Shown piece after piece: positions 5,106 to 17,483 of a DNA stretch of 64,000 nt. Both the position numbers and the translations under genes were made by a program. The stretch's first letter is position 1; each line of letters opens with the position of its first letter. The notes under the pieces were generated by a model. It worked only from the letters and a program-made list of their open reading frames with translations, was not told the DNA's origin and searched no databases. Source of the DNA: Candidatus Limnocylindrales bacterium (GTDB taxonomy: Bacteria; Chloroflexota; Limnocylindria; Limnocylindrales; CSP1-4); contig JBEKMM010000005.1 of NCBI GenBank assembly GCA_050008515.1, forward strand, positions 70,888-134,887, in the 5' to 3' direction.

Positions 5106-6218
5106 ATGGCCACCGGCACCAACGGCGGAGCGCAAGAGCACGTCTTCTCCCTCGCCTCGCGGCTGAACTTGGCCCGCTACGACGTCAGGGTCGTCTCGCT
5201 CTCGCACGGCAGCAGCGTCCGCCGGTTGCAGAAGGCGGGCATCGAAGCGTCGGTGATCGACGAGCCGGACGACCGCCTGGCCGTTCTGGCGCTGGCCGAG
5301 GAGCTGGCCGCCTTCGAGCCCGAGGTCGTCCACAACCACATGTATCGCGCCGAGGTCGTGGGCACGCTGGCGGCGCTGCACCTGGGCGAGAAGGGTTGCC
5401 GCCGCCCGGCCGTCATCTCGACCGTGCATTCGAGCCGAGTCCGCTGCGTCGAGGACCGCGAGAAGCTCCGCCAGCTCACGCCGCTGATGGATCGCCTCAT
5501 CGTCGTGTCCAAAGCGATCGAGCGGAAGATCGCCGACGAGGGGCGCCGTGGCGCGCCGGTCAGCCTCATCTACAACGGCGTGGACCTGCAGCGCTACAAC
5601 CACCAGCAGCCGTGCTGCACGCTCCACGAGGACTACAAGATCGACCCCGATGCCCCGATCGTCGGCGTCGTGGCTAGACTCGAGGCCGAGAAGGGCCACC
5701 GCACGCTGCTCGACGCCTGGCCGCTGGTCCTCGCCGTCGTCCCCAATGCGTGGCTTCTCGTCGTCGGCGAAGGCTCGGAGCGCGACTCGCTCGAGGCCCA
5801 GGCCGACATCCTGGGCATCTCCGGGAGGGTCGTCTTCACCGGCCGCCGCGAGGACGTGCCGGCGGTCACGGCCGCGCTGGACATCTCGGTCCTGCCGTCG
5901 TACCGCGAGGCCCAGGGCCTGAGCGTTCTCGAGGCGATGGCGCTAAGCCGCCCGGTCGTGGCGTCGGCGGTGGGCGGCATTCCGGAGATGATCGAGGACG
6001 GGGTCAGTGGGCTGCTCGTCCCGCCCCACGACTGCGACGCGCTGGCGGCGGCGATCATCCGGCTGCTGACCGATCACCCGCTGGCCGACACGGTCGCCCG
6101 CCGCGGCCACGATCTGGTCCACGACCGCTTCTGCATCGAGCTGATGGTCAAGGCCGTCTCGGACAAGTACGACGAGGCCGCGGTCCGGATCCGCGAGTCG
6201 AAGAGCGTCGCGCGGTAG
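5106..6218 (+). CDS. GT4 (group 1) glycosyltransferase
   Basis: Only the C-terminal 370 aa of ORF 4389..6218 look like protein. N-term MATGTNGGAQEHVFSLA, EAMALSRPVVASAVGGIPE (E-X7-E) and GVSGLLVPP. Start ATG 5106 (alternative GTG 5097). Confidence 0.8.
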   Translation: MATGTNGGAQEHVFSLASRLNLARYDVRVVSLSHGSSVRRLQKAGIEASVIDEPDDRLAVLALAEELAAFEPEVVHNHMYRAEVVGTLAALHLGEKGCRRPAVISTVHSSRVRCVEDREKLRQLTPLMDRLIVVSKAIERKIADEGRRGAPVSLIYNGVDLQRYNHQQPCCTLHEDYKIDPDAPIVGVVARLEAEKGHRTLLDAWPLVLAVVPNAWLLVVGEGSERDSLEAQADILGISGRVVFTGRREDVPAVTAALDISVLPSYREAQGLSVLEAMALSRPVVASAVGGIPEMIEDGVSGLLVPPHDCDALAAAIIRLLTDHPLADTVARRGHDLVHDRFCIELMVKAVSDKYDEAAVRIRESKSVAR

Positions 6219-8662: not shown

Positions 8663-10480
8663 TCAGGCGTCGCGGATGGCGCGGACGCCCAGGCCGGCCA
8701 GGCCGGCGGCCACGGTCAGGATGCCGCAGCCCGCCAGCACGACGTCGAGGCCGAAGATCTGGGCGAAGAGCCCGCTCGTGACCATCGACACGGCGAGCAT
8801 CGCGTTCACCAGCGCGAGGCGGATCGCGACTACTCGCCCGAGCATGTCGTCCGGGGTGCGCTGCTGGAAGACGGTCTGGCTCGGGACGACGAAGGTGACG
8901 TTGGCCAGGCCGACGACCGCCGCCAGCGCCAGCGCCACCCACAGGCTGCCGGTCACCGAGAAGAGGATCAGCGCCGCGCCAAACGCCGTGAACCCGGCCA
9001 CGATCGCCGGCCCCTTGGGGAGGCGCGTCGCGACGGCCCCGATCGCCACGCCGCCGCCCACCAGGCCCACGCCCATCGACATCTCGAAGAAGCCGTACGC
9101 GGTCGGCGCGTCCAGCCTGCCCAGCGGCAGCGCGGCCACGAGCAACGGGGAGAGCGCCATCAGCGCCCCCATTCCATATTCCGCGATCGTGGCCTGGACC
9201 GTCGTCGCGAACAGGACCGTCTCCGCGCGCAGGAACCGCCAGCCGGCCACGAGATCGGCTCGCAGCGAGGCGCGCACACCGCCGGCCCCCGCCCCCACCG
9301 CCGGCACGATGCGCGGGATCGCGACCGCCGCCACCAGCGCACCCGAGGCGAGATAGCTCGCCCCGTCGATCCAGAACGCCAGCGCCAGCGACGATCCCAG
9401 GAACGCCACGAACAGCCCGCCCAGGCCGTAGCCCGCCAGGTCGCTGACGTTGTCCGCCACCCACATCGCCGAGTTGGCCGTGAGCAGGTCCTCGTCCGGG
9501 ACCACCTGCGGGAGCGCCGCCGCGCGAGCCGGCCGGAAGAACGACGAGGCGACCGCGATCAGGAAGACCAGCCCCACGACCAGACCCATGTGCAGGCCCG
9601 AGACGACCGGGATGGCGAACACGAGGGCGGCCCGCACCAGGTCCGAGCCCACCATCACCCACTTGCGGTCCCAGCGATCCACCAGCGCGCCGGCCAGCGG
9701 GCCCACCACCGACGTGGGGATCGTCATGGCGGCGAAGGTCAGGCCGAGCGCCAGCGGCGATCCGTTGGTGGCGCGCGCGACCAGGAAGACGAGCGCGATC
9801 TGGTGGACGCGGTCTCCGAGCGAGCTTACGACCTGGGCCAGCCACATGGCGGAGAACGGGCCGTTCGTCGCCAGCCGGACGTACGGGTGGGCCAGCGCCC
9901 CCGTACGAACAGGGGCGATGGAGACCGAGACCAGGACCGGCGCCCGGACGACCGCGGCGAAGACGAAGAAGGCCAGGCCGGCGCCCAGCAGCAGGTCGCC
10001 CACCGACGCGACCGACTGGATGATCGGGATCGGGATCGGGATGACGTCGGCCAGCGGACCGCCGTGGGCGAGGAAGCCGGCGTCAACGGGGCCGGTCAGC
10101 AGGACGTGGAAGTTCGAATGGACGGCGGACGGGTCGAAGCCGGCGGCAGCCAGGCTGGGCTGCCAGACCGGCATCCAACCGCCGTTGACGACGATGGCGG
10201 TGCCGTTGGCGATCGTGCCGAGCGCGGCGGCCGCGAACCCGGGCAGGCTCCGGTTGGCCAGCAGCGCGGCCGCGAGGTAGACGTACGTGACCAGGACCAG
10301 CCACAGCCGTATGTCGTTCGGAACGCCGCCCGCCGCCAGCGCCGCGTCCAGCCCGAAGCGCGCCCCGGCCGCCACGAGCAGCACCGGCCACCAGCGCAGC
10401 CGGACGTCGAGCAGGTTGTCCAGCCGTCCGCCCGCGGCCAGACCGAGCAAGAACCCGAGGAGTACGCCGAGGACCGGCAC
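8663..10480 (-). CDS. MFS transporter with an extra N-terminal ~190-aa polytopic membrane domain (apparent fusion)
   Basis: 605 aa. Residues about 200-605 have an MFS signature (NGPFSAMWLAQVVSSLGDR, 12 TM). The N-terminal domain is hydrophobic and of unknown function. There is no stop between the two parts, and the start is 4 bp from the HD-GYP stop. Confidence 0.65.
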   Translation of the reverse strand: MPVLGVLLGFLLGLAAGGRLDNLLDVRLRWWPVLLVAAGARFGLDAALAAGGVPNDIRLWLVLVTYVYLAAALLANRSLPGFAAAALGTIANGTAIVVNGGWMPVWQPSLAAAGFDPSAVHSNFHVLLTGPVDAGFLAHGGPLADVIPIPIPIIQSVASVGDLLLGAGLAFFVFAAVVRAPVLVSVSIAPVRTGALAHPYVRLATNGPFSAMWLAQVVSSLGDRVHQIALVFLVARATNGSPLALGLTFAAMTIPTSVVGPLAGALVDRWDRKWVMVGSDLVRAALVFAIPVVSGLHMGLVVGLVFLIAVASSFFRPARAAALPQVVPDEDLLTANSAMWVADNVSDLAGYGLGGLFVAFLGSSLALAFWIDGASYLASGALVAAVAIPRIVPAVGAGAGGVRASLRADLVAGWRFLRAETVLFATTVQATIAEYGMGALMALSPLLVAALPLGRLDAPTAYGFFEMSMGVGLVGGGVAIGAVATRLPKGPAIVAGFTAFGAALILFSVTGSLWVALALAAVVGLANVTFVVPSQTVFQQRTPDDMLGRVVAIRLALVNAMLAVSMVTSGLFAQIFGLDVVLAGCGILTVAAGLAGLGVRAIRDA

Positions 10481-10483
10481 CTG

Positions 10484-11818
10484 CTAGGTGGCTGCGCCGG
10501 CGATCGAGCCCGCCGCCTGGCCGATCAGCGGCACGTCGCGGACATCGTCACGTCCTGGGTCCGGGAGCCCGCGCGCCCACTTCGTCCGAACGAAGGCGTC
10601 TACGACCTCCGGGTCGAACTGGATCCCCCCGAACTTGCGCAGCTCGGCCAGCGCCTGCTCGGGCGTGAGCGCCGTCATCCGATACGGCCGGGGGGCCGTC
10701 ATCGCCTCGAAGGCGTCGGCGACGTGCAGGATTCGAGCCAGCTTGGGGATCTCCTCGCCCGCCAATCGGTCGGGATAGCCCGATCCGTTGAACCACTCGT
10801 GGTGGTGGAGGATGATCGGCAGCTCCGGGGCCAGGTGCTTGACCGGCCTGATGATGTCCGCGCCCAGGACCGGGTGCTTGTTCATCTTCTCCCGCTCCTC
10901 GCGCGTGAGCCGCTCCTGCTTGAGCAACACATCGTCCCGCACGCCGATCTTACCGATGTCGTGGAGGAGGCCGCCCCACTCCAGGGCCTCCAGGTCGTCG
11001 TCGCTCACCTTCATCGCCCGCCCGATGTCCATGGCGATCTCCTGGACCTTGTGGCTGTGGCCGCTGGTTAACGGGTCGCGCTTGTCCACTGCCTCCGCCA
11101 GGCTGGCCACGGTTTCGGTGAACATCTCCCGCACTTCCACGAAGCGCCGAAAGGCCAGCCTGGTCGTGTACAGCGGCACCGCGAACAGCAGCACCGCCCA
11201 CCAAGCGGAGAGGTACATCTGCGCCATAAGCCACGCGACCGGCGCGAGGGCCAGCATGTTGAGGTACGCGCCCCCGGATCCGCGCAGCTGCCTCGATACC
11301 GGTTGCCCCTCCCTCAGAGAGACGAACGTGGCCGTCAGGAGCACGTTCAGCGAGAAGCAGATGAAGGCCGCAAACGTCGTCGCGAGGAAATCCACAGCAG
11401 CGATCTCGCGAGAGGGGATTGCCTGCAGCACGGCTGCCGCGAAAATCGACGGCGCAACAATGACGCAGCGGTTAGCGACAACGCCGTACCACGGGACTTC
11501 GCCCCTGACTTCCCGGGCCTGAGTGGTTCCGATCAGACTGACCCATCCCGCGACGGCGGCTCCCCCAAGGGTCATGGTGGCGACAAGCGGAGCAAAGGCC
11601 ACGTCCAGCGAGCTGCCGCTCGGCATGCGCACTGGAAGCGAAGAACCAAGGAGAGTCAGGCAAACCCAGAAGGCGACACCTGCCAGAACGCCGCTGGAGG
11701 TCCTGTTGACAGATATGTCTTCGGTCGGCTTGCAGAAGTAAGAAACGGCCGCCAGCAATGCGGCCGTTCCGACCGTTGCGCAGACCAGCGTGACCAAGAG
11801 CCGTCGATTCATGGACAC
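10484..11818 (-). CDS. Membrane-anchored HD-GYP domain phosphohydrolase (likely c-di-GMP phosphodiesterase)
   Basis: N-terminal multi-TM sensor region, then HKVQEIA, HDIGK, and HHEWFNGSGYP (HD-GYP). Confidence 0.8.
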   Translation of the reverse strand: MSMNRRLLVTLVCATVGTAALLAAVSYFCKPTEDISVNRTSSGVLAGVAFWVCLTLLGSSLPVRMPSGSSLDVAFAPLVATMTLGGAAVAGWVSLIGTTQAREVRGEVPWYGVVANRCVIVAPSIFAAAVLQAIPSREIAAVDFLATTFAAFICFSLNVLLTATFVSLREGQPVSRQLRGSGGAYLNMLALAPVAWLMAQMYLSAWWAVLLFAVPLYTTRLAFRRFVEVREMFTETVASLAEAVDKRDPLTSGHSHKVQEIAMDIGRAMKVSDDDLEALEWGGLLHDIGKIGVRDDVLLKQERLTREEREKMNKHPVLGADIIRPVKHLAPELPIILHHHEWFNGSGYPDRLAGEEIPKLARILHVADAFEAMTAPRPYRMTALTPEQALAELRKFGGIQFDPEVVDAFVRTKWARGLPDPGRDDVRDVPLIGQAAGSIAGAAT

Positions 11819-11972
11819 CTCATCGACGGCGGAACGCTACATCCTGCGAGTATCCCGGCCAATCGGCCAGATGTACTCAGAACGGCCGGTAGCTGGCTTC
11901 AGCGGCGAGGGCAACGAGCAGCGTTAGCGAAAGTGCACGCAGAGTTGCGCGAAGGCGAGCACTCATGACAGT

Positions 11973-12050
11973 GACCACGGCTTGTTGATCCGCTCTGCCG
12001 ACCACGGCTTGTTGATCCGCTCTGGCGACCACGGCTTGTTGATCCGCTCG
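11973..12050. repeat. Three tandem copies of a 27-bp unit GACCACGGCTTGTTGATCCGCTCTG(C/G)C
   Basis: Direct reading: copies at 11973-11999, 12000-12026 and 12027-~12050 (the third diverges at its end). The site lies about 150-230 bp upstream of the HD-GYP start, in a 760-bp gene-free island. Confidence 0.85.
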
Positions 12051-12577
12051 GGGGACACGAGAGTCCGCTCCTAGATGGCGAGCAACGCGCGGCGGGTCGC
12101 ACTAGCTGCTAGGTCCCTGCTCAAGTGCCCGAGTTCGGCCGGGGCCGCCAAGCGTCCGAGCGTTCTCATCCGGAGGGCATGAGATGACGTCAGCCCCGGA
12201 CCTTTGGCAGGTTAGGAAGCCAAAAGTACTCGGGTCAATACGCTATCTGTCCTACCCTCGGGACGTCACCAGGTCAAATCGACCCCCAAAGGCGGCCGCT
12301 CGACCGCCAATTGCCCTCGAATGAAGCGCCCGTGATGCGCGTCGTGGTCGGCAGCGCTACTCCTTTCGCCCCGACCACTTACGGGTTTCGCAGCTCGGCC
12401 GGCAGTACCGCTGCCCGCCCGTGTGGATGCCATGGCCGCCAATGTCCGTAGTGGCGGCCGAATTCGTGGCCGAGGTCATCCCACTAATCGAGGCCTACAT
12501 CGCCAGGCACCCTGACCAGCTTACGACGCTGCGTTGCCCGCTGGCCCGCTGGCCCGTTGGCCCGCCGGCCGCGCCGG

Positions 12578-13882
12578 TCAGGTGCCCTGGGCGACCGTCT
12601 CCGGGGCCGGGGTGTAGCCCTGCGTCCATGTCGCGGGCACGTACGTCGGCACGACCTGGATGAAGATCTGCCCTCGGACCATCGGAACCGGCTGGCCCTT
12701 GTTCGGACCGGTCGCGTACGTGAGGAGCGTGGGAGCGTATTCCTTCTTCTTGGTCCAGATCGCCTGGGTCGCGATGCCGTTGTTGAAGACCATCGCGTTG
12801 CCGTGGCCGATGTACTGCACGTCCAGGCGGTGCTTCGTCAGGGCGGCTGGGCTGCCCCGGAGCATGCCGACGTTCATGAAGAGCAGGATGACGTTCGAGG
12901 GTGCGATGCGCTCATCGGTGGCGGCGTCCTTCTCGGCGCCTTCGATTTGCACCGTGCGCGGATACGTGTTCGTCTTCCAGTCGTAGGCGTAGGAGACGTG
13001 GTTGGCGCTGTAGGGGATGGTGATCGTGCCGCCCACGAGTCGGGAGCTGGCGGGGAGCGGATCCGCGAAGGTGAAGGGCGACGTCGTGAGGGCCGCCTTG
13101 CCGCCGAGCCTCTGCGTCAGCGCCTCCAGCTTGTTGTACGAGCTGTAGAGGTTGTGGGGCGCCGCTCGGAACGCCGTCCGCCACATGTAGCCGCTCATGC
13201 CGCCAAAGCGGAGCCCGTCGATGTTGTAGATGTACTTGCCGTTGTCGGTGGCCAGGCGGTTCATTGCGTTGGGCGCGCCCCACATGTGCACGTACGCGGC
13301 CTTGTACTCCTCCGCCCAGGCCACGAAGTAGAGCCTGGCGCTGCGGATCGGTCCGATGGCCGGCGGGGCCTGCGTCTGGAATAGCGCCATGTAGCGCGGA
13401 ATGCCGCCCTCGGCAGGACCCTGATAGACGATGTTGGCCATCGACAGTCCCGATTGCGGCCTGGCGCCCCAGTGGTCGTCGATCATGACGGCGATCGGTT
13501 TGCGCGTGGCCAGCTCGGCCTGGTCGGCGGGGAGCCACACCCCATCGGTGGTGGCAGCCACCATCGGCGCCGGGGTGGGCGTGGGGGACGGCGTCGGGAT
13601 CAGCGTGGGCGTGGCCGTCGGCGTCGGCGTGGCTGTGGGCGTGGGCGCGGCGGTGGCTTCGGCGATCTCGGTCGGGCTCGGGGTCGGCGTCGCCGAGCTG
13701 CTCGAGATCTGCGCGACGGCGATGCCGCTGCCCACCAGGGCGACCACGATCACGACGGCGGCCCCGACCACGACCGGACGGCGCGAAAGAAGGCTTCGCA
13801 CGAACGCGGGCGACCGCCCGACCGCGGCACGGCCGCGCCCGAGAAGGCTGCGAATGAGCACGAAGGGGCCCCCACCTTTCAT
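12578..13882 (-). CDS. DUF3048 domain protein (YerB-like), membrane-anchored with Pro/Thr linker
   Basis: N-terminal TM, PTPT linker, and IAVMIDDHWGARPQSGLSMANIVYQGPAEGGIPRYMALF typical of DUF3048. Confidence 0.65.
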   Translation of the reverse strand: MKGGGPFVLIRSLLGRGRAAVGRSPAFVRSLLSRRPVVVGAAVVIVVALVGSGIAVAQISSSSATPTPSPTEIAEATAAPTPTATPTPTATPTLIPTPSPTPTPAPMVAATTDGVWLPADQAELATRKPIAVMIDDHWGARPQSGLSMANIVYQGPAEGGIPRYMALFQTQAPPAIGPIRSARLYFVAWAEEYKAAYVHMWGAPNAMNRLATDNGKYIYNIDGLRFGGMSGYMWRTAFRAAPHNLYSSYNKLEALTQRLGGKAALTTSPFTFADPLPASSRLVGGTITIPYSANHVSYAYDWKTNTYPRTVQIEGAEKDAATDERIAPSNVILLFMNVGMLRGSPAALTKHRLDVQYIGHGNAMVFNNGIATQAIWTKKKEYAPTLLTYATGPNKGQPVPMVRGQIFIQVVPTYVPATWTQGYTPAPETVAQGT

Positions 13883-13939
13883 GCCCGGAAGCCTATCACG
13901 CTCGCCAGACGGCGACGTTTTCAGAATCTCCCGCGCCGG

Positions 13940-14143
13940 CTACGACTCGTATTCGAAGCCGAGCTTCATCTGGACGCGGTACTCCACGATCTCGCCGTTC
14001 TCGACGCGGGCGGTCGACTGGACCACCTCGATCGTCCGGATGTTGCGGACCGTCTTGGATGCCAGGGTCACGGCCTGGCGCGCCGCGTCGCTCCATGAAT
14101 GCGGGCTGGTGCCCACCATCTCTCGCACGATGATCGCGCCCAT
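13940..14143 (-). CDS. Dodecin family flavin-binding protein
   Basis: 67 aa MGAIIVREMVGTSPHSWSDAARQAVTLASKTVRNIRTIEVVQSTARVENGEIVEYRVQMKLGFEYES. ATG 14143 with strong RBS AAGGAGGAG. The rest of ORF 13940..14350 was rejected. Confidence 0.8.
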   Translation of the reverse strand: MGAIIVREMVGTSPHSWSDAARQAVTLASKTVRNIRTIEVVQSTARVENGEIVEYRVQMKLGFEYES

Positions 14144-14266
14144 CGGTCTCCTCCTTTGGCGGGCTAAGTGGCGCCCTACTGGCCGAAGTGTAGGGCCAGA
14201 GGGTCGCGTCCCCACGTCGGTTGGTGGCGCTGGTACTGGGCGCCGACCCACAGGGCGCCTCAAGTA

Positions 14267-14301
14267 TTGACAGTACTCAGCCGATGTTCGATTATCGAAC
14301 A
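14267..14301 (+). promoter_or_regulatory. Putative promoter (TTGACA -35) with a perfect 17-bp palindromic operator TGTTCGATTATCGAACA overlapping the -10, upstream of the XRE gene
   Basis: TTGACA at 14267-14272. Palindrome 14285-14301 (8+1+8, perfect). It sits 19 bp upstream of the XRE ATG with RBS GAGAAGGGAG. Confidence 0.5.
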
Positions 14302-14319
14302 CGAGAGAAGGGAGCTGGG

Positions 14320-14649
14320 ATGAATGACCTAGCGGCCCGCATTCGGGCATTGAGGGAACAGCACGGCTGGAATCAAGCGGACCTTGCCGAGGCAGCCGGC
14401 AACGGCTTGGATCGCGTGAAGGTCAATAAGATCGAGGGCGGGACGCGGAAGTTGAGCTCCATGGAGTTCGCGGCGATCGCCGAGGCGCTGCATGTTCGGA
14501 CGGATGATCTGCTGCAGCCAGAGCCCGCCGTCAGTGCGTACCGCGCCGAGAACGCCGATTCGCCGGCGGCGCGCGAGGCCATGGAATGGTTCGATGGGTT
14601 CATAAGGGACTACCGTCGGATGCAGCGTCTGGACCGCCTTGGTGCCTGA
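14320..14649 (+). CDS. XRE-family helix-turn-helix transcriptional regulator
   Basis: MNDLAARIRALREQHGWNQADLAEAAG... HTH_3 signature. ATG 14320 with RBS. The upstream part of ORF 14221..14649 was rejected. Confidence 0.8.
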   Translation: MNDLAARIRALREQHGWNQADLAEAAGNGLDRVKVNKIEGGTRKLSSMEFAAIAEALHVRTDDLLQPEPAVSAYRAENADSPAAREAMEWFDGFIRDYRRMQRLDRLGA

Positions 14650-14662
14650 GCCCCGGCCGAGA

Positions 14663-15421
14663 ATGGCCGCTCACGCACTCCGCCAGGAGTTGGCCCTCGG
14701 CCATGGATGGGTCGATCCGTTCGCCGCTCTGAGGCAGCGGGGCGTGGTGCTCGTCCGCCATGCCGTGAAGGATGAGGGAGATCTCGACGGCAACTACCGC
14801 CTTGTCGACGATCAGGCCTTCGTGTTTGTCAACTCAAGCCGCCCGGCCGTCCGGCAGCGATTCACGGCGGCCCACGAGTTGGCCCATCACGAGCTGGACG
14901 TGGCGTCGGTACGAGCCAACATCGTCGACGCGGATGTCTACGGCGTCCAAGGCACTCACCGAGACATGAACTTCTTCGCCGCGGCATTCCTGATCGACCA
15001 GGCGGGGGCATGCCAGATGAGAGACGAGGGCCTGGCTGGCGAGGCTCTCGTGGCGGCGACGATCGCCAGGTTCGAAGTCAGCTTCAAGGCGGCGGCCATC
15101 GAGCTGAAGTACCTACACCTGATCACAACGCAGCAGTACGACGATCTGGTCGCCAGGCACGCAGACGAGGAGTTCCGGGTAGGGGAGTTCGTTGCCCAGT
15201 TCGGGCACACGATGCCCACTGGCCCAAGTGTTTCTGAAGAACTGGACCCCAGCTTCCTGGCGATGGTCAAGCGCCGCTATGAGCGCGGCGGTCTGAACCT
15301 CACGGCGGTGGCGGCGGCTCTGCGCACGAGCATGCAGGGAGCGCAGGGTTGGTTAGAGGAAGCGGGCGCTAAAGGGCCTGTGGTCGTCCAAGACGACGGC
15401 GGGTTCTATTTGCCGGAATAG
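14663..15421 (+). CDS. ImmA/IrrE family metallo-endopeptidase (COG2856/DUF955)
   Basis: HEXXH as AAHELAHHELD, about 250 aa, immediately downstream of the XRE gene (alternative TTG start 14639 overlaps the XRE end). Confidence 0.75.
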   Translation: MAAHALRQELALGHGWVDPFAALRQRGVVLVRHAVKDEGDLDGNYRLVDDQAFVFVNSSRPAVRQRFTAAHELAHHELDVASVRANIVDADVYGVQGTHRDMNFFAAAFLIDQAGACQMRDEGLAGEALVAATIARFEVSFKAAAIELKYLHLITTQQYDDLVARHADEEFRVGEFVAQFGHTMPTGPSVSEELDPSFLAMVKRRYERGGLNLTAVAAALRTSMQGAQGWLEEAGAKGPVVVQDDGGFYLPE

Positions 15422-15429
15422 GGGGACGA

Positions 15430-16104
15430 TCAGGCATTCGCCCGCACACTGCTTAGCCGCTCGAGGAAAGCCTTCTGGCCTGGGGGTTCCGCGCTGAGCC
15501 ACAGATACCCCTTCATGCCGTGCGTGTGCACCATCGACTGATAGCCGCGCCAGGCTTCCATCGGGTCGAGGTAGCCCTGGTGGACGAACAGGGCGACGAC
15601 GGAGAATGGGTTGACCGTATGCACCTTCAAGAGCCGGGCGCTGACTGTTGCATCGTGATCGTTGGTGACGAAGGTCCAGCCAGCGGCAGCGTTGCGCCGG
15701 CGGAGGCAGACCACGATCGATTCAGCTTCGCCTAGGTTGTACCTGGCGTCATACGACAATCCATGCTTGGCTTCCCAGTCTCGTTGCAAGTCCAACACCG
15801 TCTGCAGTTCGTCTCTGTCCAGCAGCCCTTCCGGAGACCAATACCGGGGCAAGTGGAAAAAGCTCTCGATCTTCGGGGTGCCGTGCTTCTGATTGAGCAG
15901 CTCTCGATGGACCGCATCGGCCACGTGGAGACGTCCATCGAACGCCATCCGCAGGTGCTCTTCCCAGTCAACGCAGCAGAGGTAGCGGACGACGTGAGTG
16001 TCGACGACGACCTGTCTGGCCGCGAGGATTGTCAGATCCCCCGGCGCTGGTCGAGCGGCCGGTGGCCCGACGCCGGTCGCGGCTGACCCACCCGTTCCCG
16101 TCAA
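15430..16104 (-). CDS. PIN-like domain protein (DUF4411-like), hypothetical nuclease
   Basis: The frame continues from ORF 15430..16305, but a start must lie below the dnaB stop (16134); TTG 16104 is proposed. VVVDTHVV (β1 Asp), NLGEAESIVV and FVTNDHDA (TxD motif) fit a PIN fold. Convergent with and 8 bp from ImmA. Function is uncertain. Confidence 0.45.
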   Translation of the reverse strand: MTGTGGSAATGVGPPAARPAPGDLTILAARQVVVDTHVVRYLCCVDWEEHLRMAFDGRLHVADAVHRELLNQKHGTPKIESFFHLPRYWSPEGLLDRDELQTVLDLQRDWEAKHGLSYDARYNLGEAESIVVCLRRRNAAAGWTFVTNDHDATVSARLLKVHTVNPFSVVALFVHQGYLDPMEAWRGYQSMVHTHGMKGYLWLSAEPPGQKAFLERLSSVRANA

Positions 16105-16133
16105 GAGTGCTCGCCCCCGCGCGCCTGCACGTC

Positions 16134-17483
16134 TCAGACCGCCTCGGCGTAGCGCTCGGCCGCATAGCTCACGAAGCGGGTCTGGCTCTTCTTGAACCAT
16201 AGCTTGACTTCGCCCGTGGGGCCATTTCGATGCTTGGCCAGGCGCAGGTTCACGACCTCGCCGTCCGACTCGCTCTCCTCGCCGGGCTTGTCCCTCTCCC
16301 GCCACAGGAAGAGGACCAGGTCCGCGTCCTGCTCGATGGCGCCCGACTCCCGCAGGTCCGACAGGCGGGGCTCGCGCGACTCGCGCATCTCCGGCTGGCG
16401 CGAGAGCTGGGAGAGGGCGAGGACCGGCACCTTGAGCTCGCGGGCGAGGGACTTGAGCCCGCGGCTGATCTCGGACACCTCCTGGACGCGGTTGGCGTCG
16501 CGGTTGTTGGTGGTCGCCTGCATGAGCTGCAGGTAGTCCACGATCAGCAGGTCCAGCCCGTGCTCCGCCTGGAGCCGGCGGGCCTTGGTTCGAAGCTCCA
16601 TGGTGCTGATGGCCGGCGTGTCGTCGATGAAGAGCGGGGCTTCCGACAGGGAGTTCATCGCCGGCGCGATCCGGGCGAAGTCCATCTCCTCGAGAAAGCC
16701 CGACCGAAGCCGCTGCGAGTCGATCGAGGCGACGCTGGAGAGCAGGCGCAGGACGAGCTGCTCCTTGCTCATCTCCAGGCTGAAGACACCGACGGTCTTG
16801 CCCTCGCGCACGGCGGCGTGCTCGGCGATGTTGAGAGCCAGGCTGGTCTTGCCCACGCTGGGCCGGGCCGCCAGGACGATCAGGTCGTTCGCCTGGAAAC
16901 CGGTCGTGAGCAGGTCCAGGTCCGGGAAGCCCGAGGCGATGCCGATGATCTCGCCGCGGTGGGCGTGCAGGAAGTCCAGCCGGTCGTAGGCGTCGTGGAG
17001 GAGGGCCTTGAGGGCGCTGAAGCTGTCGCCCGAGCGGCGCTGGCTGACCGAGAACAGCTCGGCCTCCGACCGATCGATCGCCTCCTGGATGTCCGGTCCA
17101 TCCTCGTAGCCGATGGCTGCGATCTTGCCGGCCGCCTGGATCAGCCGCCGGAGGAGGGCCTTGCGCTCGACGATTCGGCCGTACTGGGCGACGTGGACCG
17201 CGGTGGGAGTGTCGTTGCCAAGGGTGGAGAGGTAGCTCGCGCCGCCCACCGCCTCGAGCTCGTTGGCGCGCTCGAGCGCCTCCGCGACCGTGACCACGTC
17301 GATCGGCTCGCGATGCTCGAAGAGATCCAGCATCGCCGCGTAGATGCGGCCGTGGGCCTGGCGGTAGAAGTCCTCCGCGTGGAGGAAATCCGCGACCTCG
17401 ATGATCGCGTCGCGATCGATGAGGATGGACCCGAGCACGGCCTGCTCGGAATCCATGTTCTGGGGCGGCAGTCGATCGATCAC
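16134..17483 (-). CDS. dnaB: Replicative DNA helicase DnaB
   Basis: PPQNMDSEQAVLGSIL N-terminus, Walker A GARPSVGKTSLAL, and full-length 449 aa with no intein. Confidence 0.9.
   Translation of the reverse strand: MIDRLPPQNMDSEQAVLGSILIDRDAIIEVADFLHAEDFYRQAHGRIYAAMLDLFEHREPIDVVTVAEALERANELEAVGGASYLSTLGNDTPTAVHVAQYGRIVERKALLRRLIQAAGKIAAIGYEDGPDIQEAIDRSEAELFSVSQRRSGDSFSALKALLHDAYDRLDFLHAHRGEIIGIASGFPDLDLLTTGFQANDLIVLAARPSVGKTSLALNIAEHAAVREGKTVGVFSLEMSKEQLVLRLLSSVASIDSQRLRSGFLEEMDFARIAPAMNSLSEAPLFIDDTPAISTMELRTKARRLQAEHGLDLLIVDYLQLMQATTNNRDANRVQEVSEISRGLKSLARELKVPVLALSQLSRQPEMRESREPRLSDLRESGAIEQDADLVLFLWRERDKPGEESESDGEVVNLRLAKHRNGPTGEVKLWFKKSQTRFVSYAAERYAEAV

Follow-up and report, generated by a model that had tools for sequence, protein, structure and literature searches.

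Introduction

The closest described relatives of the RNA considered here are the c-di-GMP-II riboswitches (RF01786; Lee et al. 2010), which recognize cyclic diguanosine monophosphate (c-di-GMP), for which the structure 3Q3Z is available (Smith et al. 2011) and which are summarized in PMC7288161, PMC7583470 and PMC12564702. In 3Q3Z, c-di-GMP is contacted by A13, A14, U37, G39, U60, A61 and C68–A74 (PMC7288161), and genes of c-di-GMP turnover are the gene class associated with these riboswitches (PMC12564702). Rfam further contains the variant families c-di-GMP-II-GAG and c-di-GMP-II-GCG, which belong to clan CL00127 (PMC12452182). Here we analyze the interval 11819–12577 of a 64,000-nucleotide (nt) stretch of DNA from a Candidatus Limnocylindrales bacterium; the whole stretch is called the window, and all coordinates refer to it unless a locus is named. 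The interval sits between two genes of the minus strand, a DUF3048 gene ending at 12578 and, downstream, a gene for an HD-GYP protein. An earlier note, made from the letters of the window, had taken it for a gene-free island of low guanine–cytosine (GC) content. We estimate a probability of roughly 75% that the interval is the minus-strand control region and 5' leader of an operon consisting of the HD-GYP gene and a gene in which DUF5317 is fused to a transporter of the major facilitator superfamily (MFS).

Several described systems combine or resemble parts of such a leader. In the mgtA and mgtCBR leaders of Salmonella, an RNA that senses Mg2+ or ATP is accompanied by the short open reading frames (ORFs) mgtL, mgtM and mgtP. 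Sensory arrest peptides are represented by TnaC, SpeFL, ErmCL and the MAGDIS upstream ORF, and to our knowledge a tandemly amplified unit is not a feature of such peptides. Small products of other kinds are the secreted pro-peptides Phr, SHP and ComS and the small membrane regulators MgrB and PmrR.

Results

Read along the minus strand, the leader and its operon consist of a predicted promoter, a 5' hairpin, an aptamer, a Shine-Dalgarno sequence with a first small ORF (ORF-1), a second small ORF (ORF-2), the HD-GYP gene and the DUF5317–MFS gene, in this order. A genome scan yielded 80 orthologous loci, all from metagenome-assembled genomes (MAGs) of Chloroflexota/Limnocylindria, with HD-GYP protein identities of 49–87%. 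By blastn and iterated nhmmer, the proximal part of the interval was found upstream of the HD-GYP gene in 63 of the 80; of the remaining loci, 7 are truncated on their upstream side and 10 are the most distant ones. The DUF5317–MFS gene follows the HD-GYP gene in 78 of the 80 loci. The recurrence of the same leader together with the same partner gene indicates that the operon is conserved across the order. Two groups of loci are distinguished below: group A is the clade of the window, and group B comprises more distant relatives with HD-GYP identities of ~51–60%.

The leader is a dense regulatory region, neither gene-free nor a foreign island. The earlier note had rightly placed the interval upstream of the HD-GYP operon, whose regulatory leader it most probably is, and its statement that the interval holds no protein-like ORF of 60 amino acids (aa) or more stands, there being no real gene of that size. 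What it called gene-free carries two conserved small ORFs on the minus strand. Its suggestion of a structured RNA or a small peptide gene was sound insofar as both are present; it had the wrong strand and the wrong ORFs, all functional parts being on the minus strand.

An Rfam scan in E-value mode returned a sole match, to RF01786, with 30.6 bits and an E-value of 6.5e-4 in 2.5 kb, covering the model over its full length (1–84). The corresponding aptamer of 85 nt, a member of a variant subgroup, occupies 12082–12166 on the minus strand and contains the helices P1, P2 and P3 together with a predicted GGGCAC/GUGC..CC pseudoknot. In the window and in 63 orthologous loci, the match lies on the strand of the HD-GYP gene and upstream of it, and the product of this gene degrades c-di-GMP. 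A covariance model built from the leader alignment (R1) scores the window aptamer with 81.9 bits (E-value 2.5e-19) and detects no second copy in the window; across the orthologous loci it detects a single copy in each, located immediately 5' of HD-GYP in every case (63 of 80).

Pairing was counted with the Rfam-derived structure plus the pseudoknot. Over all 62 aptamers, 80.8% of the alignment cells are paired, compared with 32–43% when the partners are slid by 1–3 columns; the covariation score is 0.193 versus 0.04–0.07 after sliding, and 17 pairs have changed on both sides. For the 39 variant sequences, 31 from genomes and 8 from metagenomes, the corresponding values are 87.1% versus 29–42% and 0.137 versus 0.04–0.075. 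The letters of the pseudoknot are invariant in 61 of 61 and 39 of 39 distinct sequences, an invariance that neither proves nor disproves pairing. RNAalifold, run on the group A leader, gave no usable structure and missed the pseudoknotted aptamer. When metagenomes were scanned with the loop sequence of group A, 27 exact matches were obtained, among them 16 true aptamers: 13 are followed by an HD-GYP gene, and the other 3 contigs end before HD-GYP, 2 of them after ORF-1 and ORF-2. No other gene context was found for these 16 variant aptamers wherever downstream sequence exists.

The 62 aptamers split into groups A and B. The group B aptamer reads CGC-GCUGAA-GCCCCACC-UGAAAUGGGCACUUA-GGGUGGGGC-CGA-GCG-AGUAGUGCAACCGACCGAC and occupies the same position as the window aptamer; all 10 complete group B aptamers that were scanned pass the RF01786 gathering score, with 55–72 bits. 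Past the aptamer the group B sequence continues as GUCAGGUCGGUUUUCG, and in locus L078 a terminator scan calls a hairpin at 5723–5747, overlapping the aptamer at 5650–5736. Because the terminator overlaps the 3' strand of P1, the two structures are mutually exclusive, which is the layout of an ON switch; the arrangement suggests ON-switch logic for group B. A second, covarying hairpin, CGUGUC...GGCACG, is present in group B between the terminator and the Shine-Dalgarno sequence of ORF-1 (e.g. L051, 5745–5775), and its 5' arm aligns with the region of the ORF-1 start codon in group A.

The contact positions of 3Q3Z were mapped onto the aptamers through the Rfam consensus. Positions 68–74 read CAACCGA in all 31 group B aptamers and CGACCCG in the window, where three of the seven nucleotides are changed (A69G, G73C and A74G). 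The sheared pairs of the kink-turn are GA/GA in 31 of 31 group B sequences, as compared with G.A and C.U in the window, and most group A members keep the first pair and not the second. Group A does not form the outer two Rfam P1 pairs and has recurrent C.A and purine–purine mismatches in P3, and its loop GAAYUCGGGCACUUG and the segment AGUGC-ACC are almost invariant. Judged by its sequence, this pattern is that of a variant class under selection rather than of decay. Clan competition on the window removed the models for c-di-GMP-II-GAG and c-di-GMP-II-GCG, which scored below RF01786; no member of the clan reaches its gathering score on the window or on the group A loci L021, L008, L004, L018 and L002. 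Pairing of GGACGC with GUGUCC at the start of ORF-1 was considered as an expression platform for group A and set aside: it is possible, but the changes in it are one-sided only.

ORF-1 (11963–12058, minus strand) begins with a GTG codon at 12058, 9 nt downstream of a Shine-Dalgarno sequence AGGAG (12068–12072), and encodes three 9-codon units, VSPERINKPW, SPERINKPW and SAERINKPW, followed by SLS and a TGA stop codon (11965–11963) that overlaps the ATG of ORF-2 as ATGA. An AGGAG or GGAGG sequence is found 5–10 nt 5' of the ORF-1 start codon in 55 of 62 loci. In 49 loci, the homologue is exactly 10 codons long, again with AGGAG or GGAGG on its 5' side, and has the consensus M, x, P (40 of 49), E (33 of 49), x, x, x, K or R (49 of 49), x, W (45 loci) or F (4 loci), stop. 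The conserved residues are written with varying codons: CCC, CCG, CCT and CCA for proline, GAG (18) and GAA (15) for glutamate, and six codons for lysine or arginine; the stop codon is TAG in 22 loci, TGA in 21 and TAA in 6. The use of synonymous codons and of all three stop codons implies that selection acts on the peptide product and on where translation ends rather than on a nucleotide motif.

The tandem repeat of the interval is part of this reading frame. Tandem Repeats Finder (TRF) reports a 27-base-pair (bp) unit in 2.9 copies at 11973–12049 with 98% matches and a score of 147, confirming the repeat named in the earlier note; on the minus strand, the threefold repeat (11973–12053) is an in-frame triplication of the ORF-1 unit. 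The note had dismissed its translation as an artefact, and the minus strand gives the conserved 9-aa unit PERINKPWS. It had also considered that the unit might be dispersed; allowing for up to three mismatches, the 27-mer occurs in the 64 kb as the three tandem copies only, with none expected by chance. The 3-unit form recurs in L107 and L091, the loci closest to the window, together with an S[L/P]S tail before the stop, that is, three codons after W, and the ATGA overlap. Among the relatives the unit is present in 1–6 copies of 27 or 21 nt (9 or 7 codons), always in frame: two in L006, L018 and L032, three in the window, L107, L091, L005, L001 and L039, and four to six in L007, L106, L086 and L104. 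The copies are nearly identical within a genome and differ between genomes, so copy number is dynamic, through slippage or conversion. In the group B locus L061 (~5573–5725), one extra base fuses ORF-1 in frame with ORF-2 to a product of 50 aa, which is either an assembly error or a natural fusion. A micro-ORF that expands by repeats appears unusual, and no described counterpart was found in this analysis.

ORF-2 runs from the ATG at 11966 to a TGA at 11877 (minus strand) and encodes the 29-aa peptide MSARLRATLRALSLTLLVALAAEASYRPF. It is exactly 29 codons long in ~37 of the 54 loci where it was found, in both groups, and is almost never annotated. By eye, the 54 sequences share a basic N-terminus, ~18 hydrophobic residues, (A/G)GGAS and a [Y/L]-[R/K]-[P/G]-F ending before the stop, features that may mark either a small membrane protein or a signal-peptide-like pro-peptide. 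The last three residues resemble those of ORF-1, and both ORFs differ in parallel between the groups, with R-P in group A as against K-G in group B. Strict covariation of the two C-termini was rejected: there is a trend at the level of clades only (RPW/RPF in A, KGW/KGF in B), with many mixed cases. The notion that the W-stop of ORF-1 merely provides the Shine-Dalgarno sequence (GGTGA) of ORF-2 was likewise discarded, since in group B the ORFs are 10–30 nt apart and ORF-2 has a Shine-Dalgarno sequence of its own. Pfam and NCBIfam gave no match for ORF-1, ORF-2 or the plus-strand ORFs, and an exact look-up in a protein collection retrieved one of four ORF-2 sequences, without a name, and neither ORF-1 query.

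Upstream of the aptamer, a candidate -35 box TTGACC (12233–12238, minus strand) lies within the near-invariant CGTATTGACC and is conserved in all aligned group A loci. A candidate -10 box TAACCT, of the form TAnnnT (12209–12214, minus strand), follows 18 nt past it, and the alignment shows TAACCT, TAACGT, TAGACT, TAGCCT and TACTCT at this fixed distance in group A. In the group B locus L078, a promoter scan found TTGACC-18-TATAGT, which matches at 10 of 12 positions; an E. coli-style scan of the window found no promoter, the -10 box there matching at 3 of 6 positions only. We infer that this promoter is used and that transcription starts at ~12203. The transcript would open with the 5' hairpin P0 (12168–12201, minus strand; GUCCGGGG...CCCUCCGGA), which is formed in the minimum free energy (MFE) structure and whose arms GUCCGG/CCGGAC are found in nearly all group A loci, the loops varying. 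A partly palindromic element, TTTYGGC-N10-GCCRAAR, straddles the -10 box (12202–12227, minus strand). It shows partial conservation in group A and may act as an operator, and one of the CCTTTGG/CCAAAAG pairs pointed out previously corresponds to it. The idea that complementary CCTTTGG and CCAAAGG segments close a structured RNA was half correct: both are present (12201–12207 and 12286–12292), but this pair does not close the structured RNA, which is the aptamer at 12166–12082. The CCAAAGG arm lies ~85 nt upstream of the proposed start, so the two arms would not be in one transcript from this promoter.

Between ORF-2 and the HD-GYP gene, the MFE fold places a stem-loop right after the ORF-2 stop (11848–11878, minus strand; GAGUA..CUGGCCGAUUGGCCGG..UACUC) that has no U-tract, and a GTAC after this stop is conserved. 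RNAalifold found no consensus structure for the spacer across group A. Group A spacers (window 11834–11875; e.g. L055 5857–5936) conserve GTACCTCTCTCCCATAGCC and, ~19 nt further on, TAGATTGCCGCGGCTGAGCGAGGAG, elements that may represent a second promoter or a protein-binding site. A perfect 9-bp hairpin, GCCGTCGAT / ATCGACGGC (11800–11830, minus strand), holds the HD-GYP Shine-Dalgarno sequence (GAGG) and ATG in its 13-nt loop.

The first large gene of the operon (10484–11812, minus strand), starting with ATG at 11812 or GTG at 11818, encodes a membrane phosphodiesterase of the HD-GYP type (Pfam HD_5, E-value 3.2e-40), whose N-terminal half has no Pfam domain. The protein (442 aa) is 100% identical to an HD-GYP domain-containing protein of a Candidatus Limnocylindrales MAG. 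The downstream member (8663–10480, minus strand) is, by Pfam, a DUF5317–MFS_3 fusion; in group A the DUF5317 membrane domain is fused to the MFS_3 transporter and shows a weak resemblance to LiaF-TM.

The distal part of the interval, ~12260–12577, does not align with most relatives and is probably a rearrangement junction. In most group A relatives, the place directly upstream of the riboswitch promoter is taken by a regulator gene whose AfsR/SARP-like product of ~1160 aa has ATPase and TPR parts and a BTAD-like tail. This gene occupies 2060–5545 in L001 and the same position in L002, L003, L006–L009 and L018; it is lost in the window. The TGA stop of the relatives' regulator aligns to ~12275 of the window, and 12273–12370 (minus strand) is a probable, weakly recognizable remnant of the decayed 3' end of this gene, with a tblastn identity of 43% over 28 aa (E-value 0.12). 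The window has DUF3048 upstream instead, as does L005, the other aligned locus with DUF3048 there. The micro-repeats seen previously near 12530–12570 correspond to an 8-bp microsatellite, GCCCGCTG, reported by TRF in 4.4–5.1 copies at 12536–12577. It is bracketed, together with the DUF3048 stop, by an 18-nt imperfect inverted repeat with 78% complementarity (12503–12590, minus strand), possibly a 3'-end structure of the upstream gene; the repeat is absent from L005, which also has DUF3048 upstream.

The GC content of 11819–12577 is 0.650, compared with 0.701 for the window, so the dip described in the earlier note is real, and its size was overstated: 200-nt windows give 0.59–0.67 rather than the claimed 55–58%. 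Across 10700–16300, a stretch of 5–6 kb, GC is 0.62–0.66, compared with 0.70–0.73 around it. A gene with an IrrE/M78-peptidase domain (14639–15421) lies inside this stretch and adjoins dnaB and lexA-like genes. The 46-aa ORF proposed on the plus strand does exist (12184–12324) and runs antisense to the conserved promoter, but it is spurious: in-frame stops or frameshifts break it at one shared site in L002, L024, L007, L026, L008 and L058. The 39-aa mini-ORF on the same strand is spurious as well and has no counterpart in other loci.

Discussion

We propose that a sigma-70-like promoter (12238–12209) would produce a transcript that opens with a hairpin and continues into the 85-nt RNA of the c-di-GMP-II fold. 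In group B, c-di-GMP would stabilize the aptamer and prevent termination, turning the phosphodiesterase operon on; c-di-GMP would thus induce its own degrading enzyme in a negative feedback loop. In group A, the terminator appears to be replaced by the Shine-Dalgarno sequence and GTG start of ORF-1. P1 of the window ends 9 nt 5' of this Shine-Dalgarno sequence, and the variant aptamer most likely responds to c-di-GMP or a related nucleotide by gating expression, probably at the level of ORF-1 translation. Through the ATGA overlap, gating of ORF-1 would extend by translational coupling to ORF-2 and possibly to the distal genes. We read the 27-bp repeat as a slippage-type, in-frame amplification of the 9-codon unit. 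The fixed length and conserved ends of the micro-ORF suggest that the peptide itself matters; it might serve as a sensor in the nascent chain, as a device for coupling or as a signal that is exported.

A number of observations weigh against the interpretation of the interval as a riboswitch-controlled leader of the HD-GYP operon. No Rfam family reaches its gathering score in the window, where RF01786 attains 30.6 of the required 53.5 bits. Within group A, there is no constraint on position 69 (C 11, A 11, G 7, U 2), position 73 carries C (24) or U (5) in 29 of 31, and position 74 carries G in 21 and A in 9 of 31; in 27 of 31 an extra C follows U37, and 29 of 31 do not form the first P2 pair. 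The altered contacts, the extra C and the broken P2 pair make it doubtful that c-di-GMP is bound in the known way. The covariation among the 39 variants is modest, with 9 covarying pairs, a number reached by 44 of 500 shuffles, and much of the support for the fold is invariance. Inspection by eye revealed no conserved terminator or anti-Shine-Dalgarno helix in group A. ORF-1 of the window ends in WSLS before the stop and not in W. Finally, a conserved TAGATT (TAGCGT in the window) ~20–30 nt 5' of the HD-GYP start could be a second promoter, which, if used, would uncouple HD-GYP from the riboswitch.

Taken together, part of these points would also fit an aptamer that is the relic of a c-di-GMP-II riboswitch and has lost ligand sensing, surviving as a structured 5' region that serves RNA stability or the loading of ribosomes, with regulation left to the small ORFs or to a protein factor. 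Three of the seven contacts carry substitutions and A69 varies freely; group A has also lost the kink-turn and the first P2 pair and shows no expression platform, and the TTTYGGC-N10-GCCRAAR element at the -10 box could serve as an operator. However, the variant is kept in 39 distinct sequences with near-invariant loop and pseudoknot letters and with stems that are 87% paired, and it was never found without the operon. Near-invariant letters and retained stems speak for selection on a precise tertiary fold and not on mere stability, and we consider a relic unlikely.

If the group A RNA instead remains a working sensor in the leader of the operon, as we favor, a more specific proposal can be made, which we regard as tentative and on balance rather doubtful. 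In this proposal, the RNA would form an undescribed specificity class of the c-di-GMP-II fold, with the pocket remodeled at positions 69, 73 and 74, an extra nucleotide following U37 and the kink-turn lost, sensing e.g. 5'-phosphoguanylyl-(3'-5')-guanosine (pGpG), 3'3'-cyclic GMP–AMP (3'3'-cGAMP) or another dinucleotide handled by the HD-GYP protein; in addition, the 10-codon ORF, which is present behind canonical and variant aptamers alike, would encode a functional peptide element that either senses a ligand as a nascent chain or is exported as a signal whose [K/R]-[P/G]-aromatic C-terminus matches that of ORF-2, and amplification of its unit to 1–6 copies would be a tuning device.

The 27-bp repeats could alternatively act at the level of nucleic acid, as binding sites for a protein or an RNA with an incidental reading frame, which is close to the cluster of repeated binding sites considered in the earlier note. 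All three minus-strand frames are open across the repeat, and the near-identity of the copies within a genome, together with their divergence between species, could reflect selection on the sequence. Yet most relatives have one unit, a 10-codon ORF with Shine-Dalgarno sequence, start codon, synonymous variation and three kinds of stop codon; every expansion, in at least four lineages, adds 27 or 21 nt and keeps the W-stop in frame; and the nucleotides of the unit differ widely between clades while the peptide motif persists. This makes incidental coding very improbable. The remaining explanation, that the interval is horizontally acquired DNA or an integration scar with a foreign small protein gene on the plus strand, could draw on a GC content 5 points below the window mean, on a wider stretch of lower GC (10.7–16.3 kb) and on a distal part (12260–12577) that is not common to most relatives and contains a possible gene remnant and a microsatellite, but it is already largely refuted and scarcely credible: the proximal 450 nt are vertically conserved in synteny across the order, in 63 orthologous loci, no tRNA was found in the window, nor an integrase or direct-repeat boundary, the plus-strand ORFs are broken in relatives, and in genomes of high GC content non-coding leaders usually have a lower GC.

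Regarded as the leader of the HD-GYP operon, the locus can be compared with the systems introduced above. It shares with the c-di-GMP-II riboswitches the P1–P2–P3 architecture, the GGGCAC and GUGC..CC letters of the pseudoknot and a gene of c-di-GMP turnover; the window aptamer keeps A13, U37, G39, C68, A70, C71 and C72, and the group B orthologues score above the curated threshold and carry a terminator platform that would fit an ON switch. It departs from them in the window's score of 30.6 bits, the A69G, G73C and A74G changes, the extra C after U37, the loss of the first P2 pair and the second sheared pair, the conserved mismatches in P3, the longer P1 and the host, which belongs to the Chloroflexota (Limnocylindrales) and not to the Clostridia. 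The window aptamer is therefore grouped in kind with the c-di-GMP-II riboswitches, but falls short of them in score, kink-turn and contact nucleotides. With the c-di-GMP-II-GAG and c-di-GMP-II-GCG families it shares a c-di-GMP-II fold with altered binding-site nucleotides, which implies altered specificity, whereas the window and five group A loci score below the gathering thresholds of both.

Like the mgtA and mgtCBR leaders, the locus has a long leader in which a ligand-sensing RNA is combined with one or two very short ORFs ahead of an operon for membrane proteins; unlike them, it has an RNA of another class and a micro-ORF with a conserved peptide of fixed length instead of a run of particular codons, and no attenuator or Rho site was found in the leader. 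ORF-1 resembles the arrest peptides in being a very short leader ORF, conserved over the whole peptide, with a specific residue before a stop whose codon varies and whose position is fixed; there is no sequence similarity to them, and the likeness is one of sequence features. As judged by eye, ORF-2 resembles secreted pro-peptides and small membrane regulators in a basic N-terminus, a hydrophobic core, a small-residue A-x-A/GGA motif and a short conserved C-terminal tail, and its neighbors code for a membrane sensor enzyme and for an MFS exporter; some peptide precursors, like ORF-1, contain several copies of a unit. In contrast to secreted pro-peptides, the operon contains no RRNPP-type receptor or processing enzyme, and ORF-1 has no export signal.

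The locus illustrates that a riboswitch missed by standard annotation can be recovered through orthology to canonical members, and that a tandem repeat in a seemingly gene-free gap can prove to be coding, as the repeated part of an unannotated micro-gene on the opposite strand. Canonical and pocket-remodeled c-di-GMP-II aptamers in front of the same operon form a natural pair for comparison; material of this kind has yielded new ligand specificities in the guanine, flavin mononucleotide (FMN) and guanidine classes. For the organisms themselves, the leader would tie a 10-codon ORF and a gene for a 29-aa peptide to c-di-GMP control in a widespread soil and peat lineage that has no cultured model.

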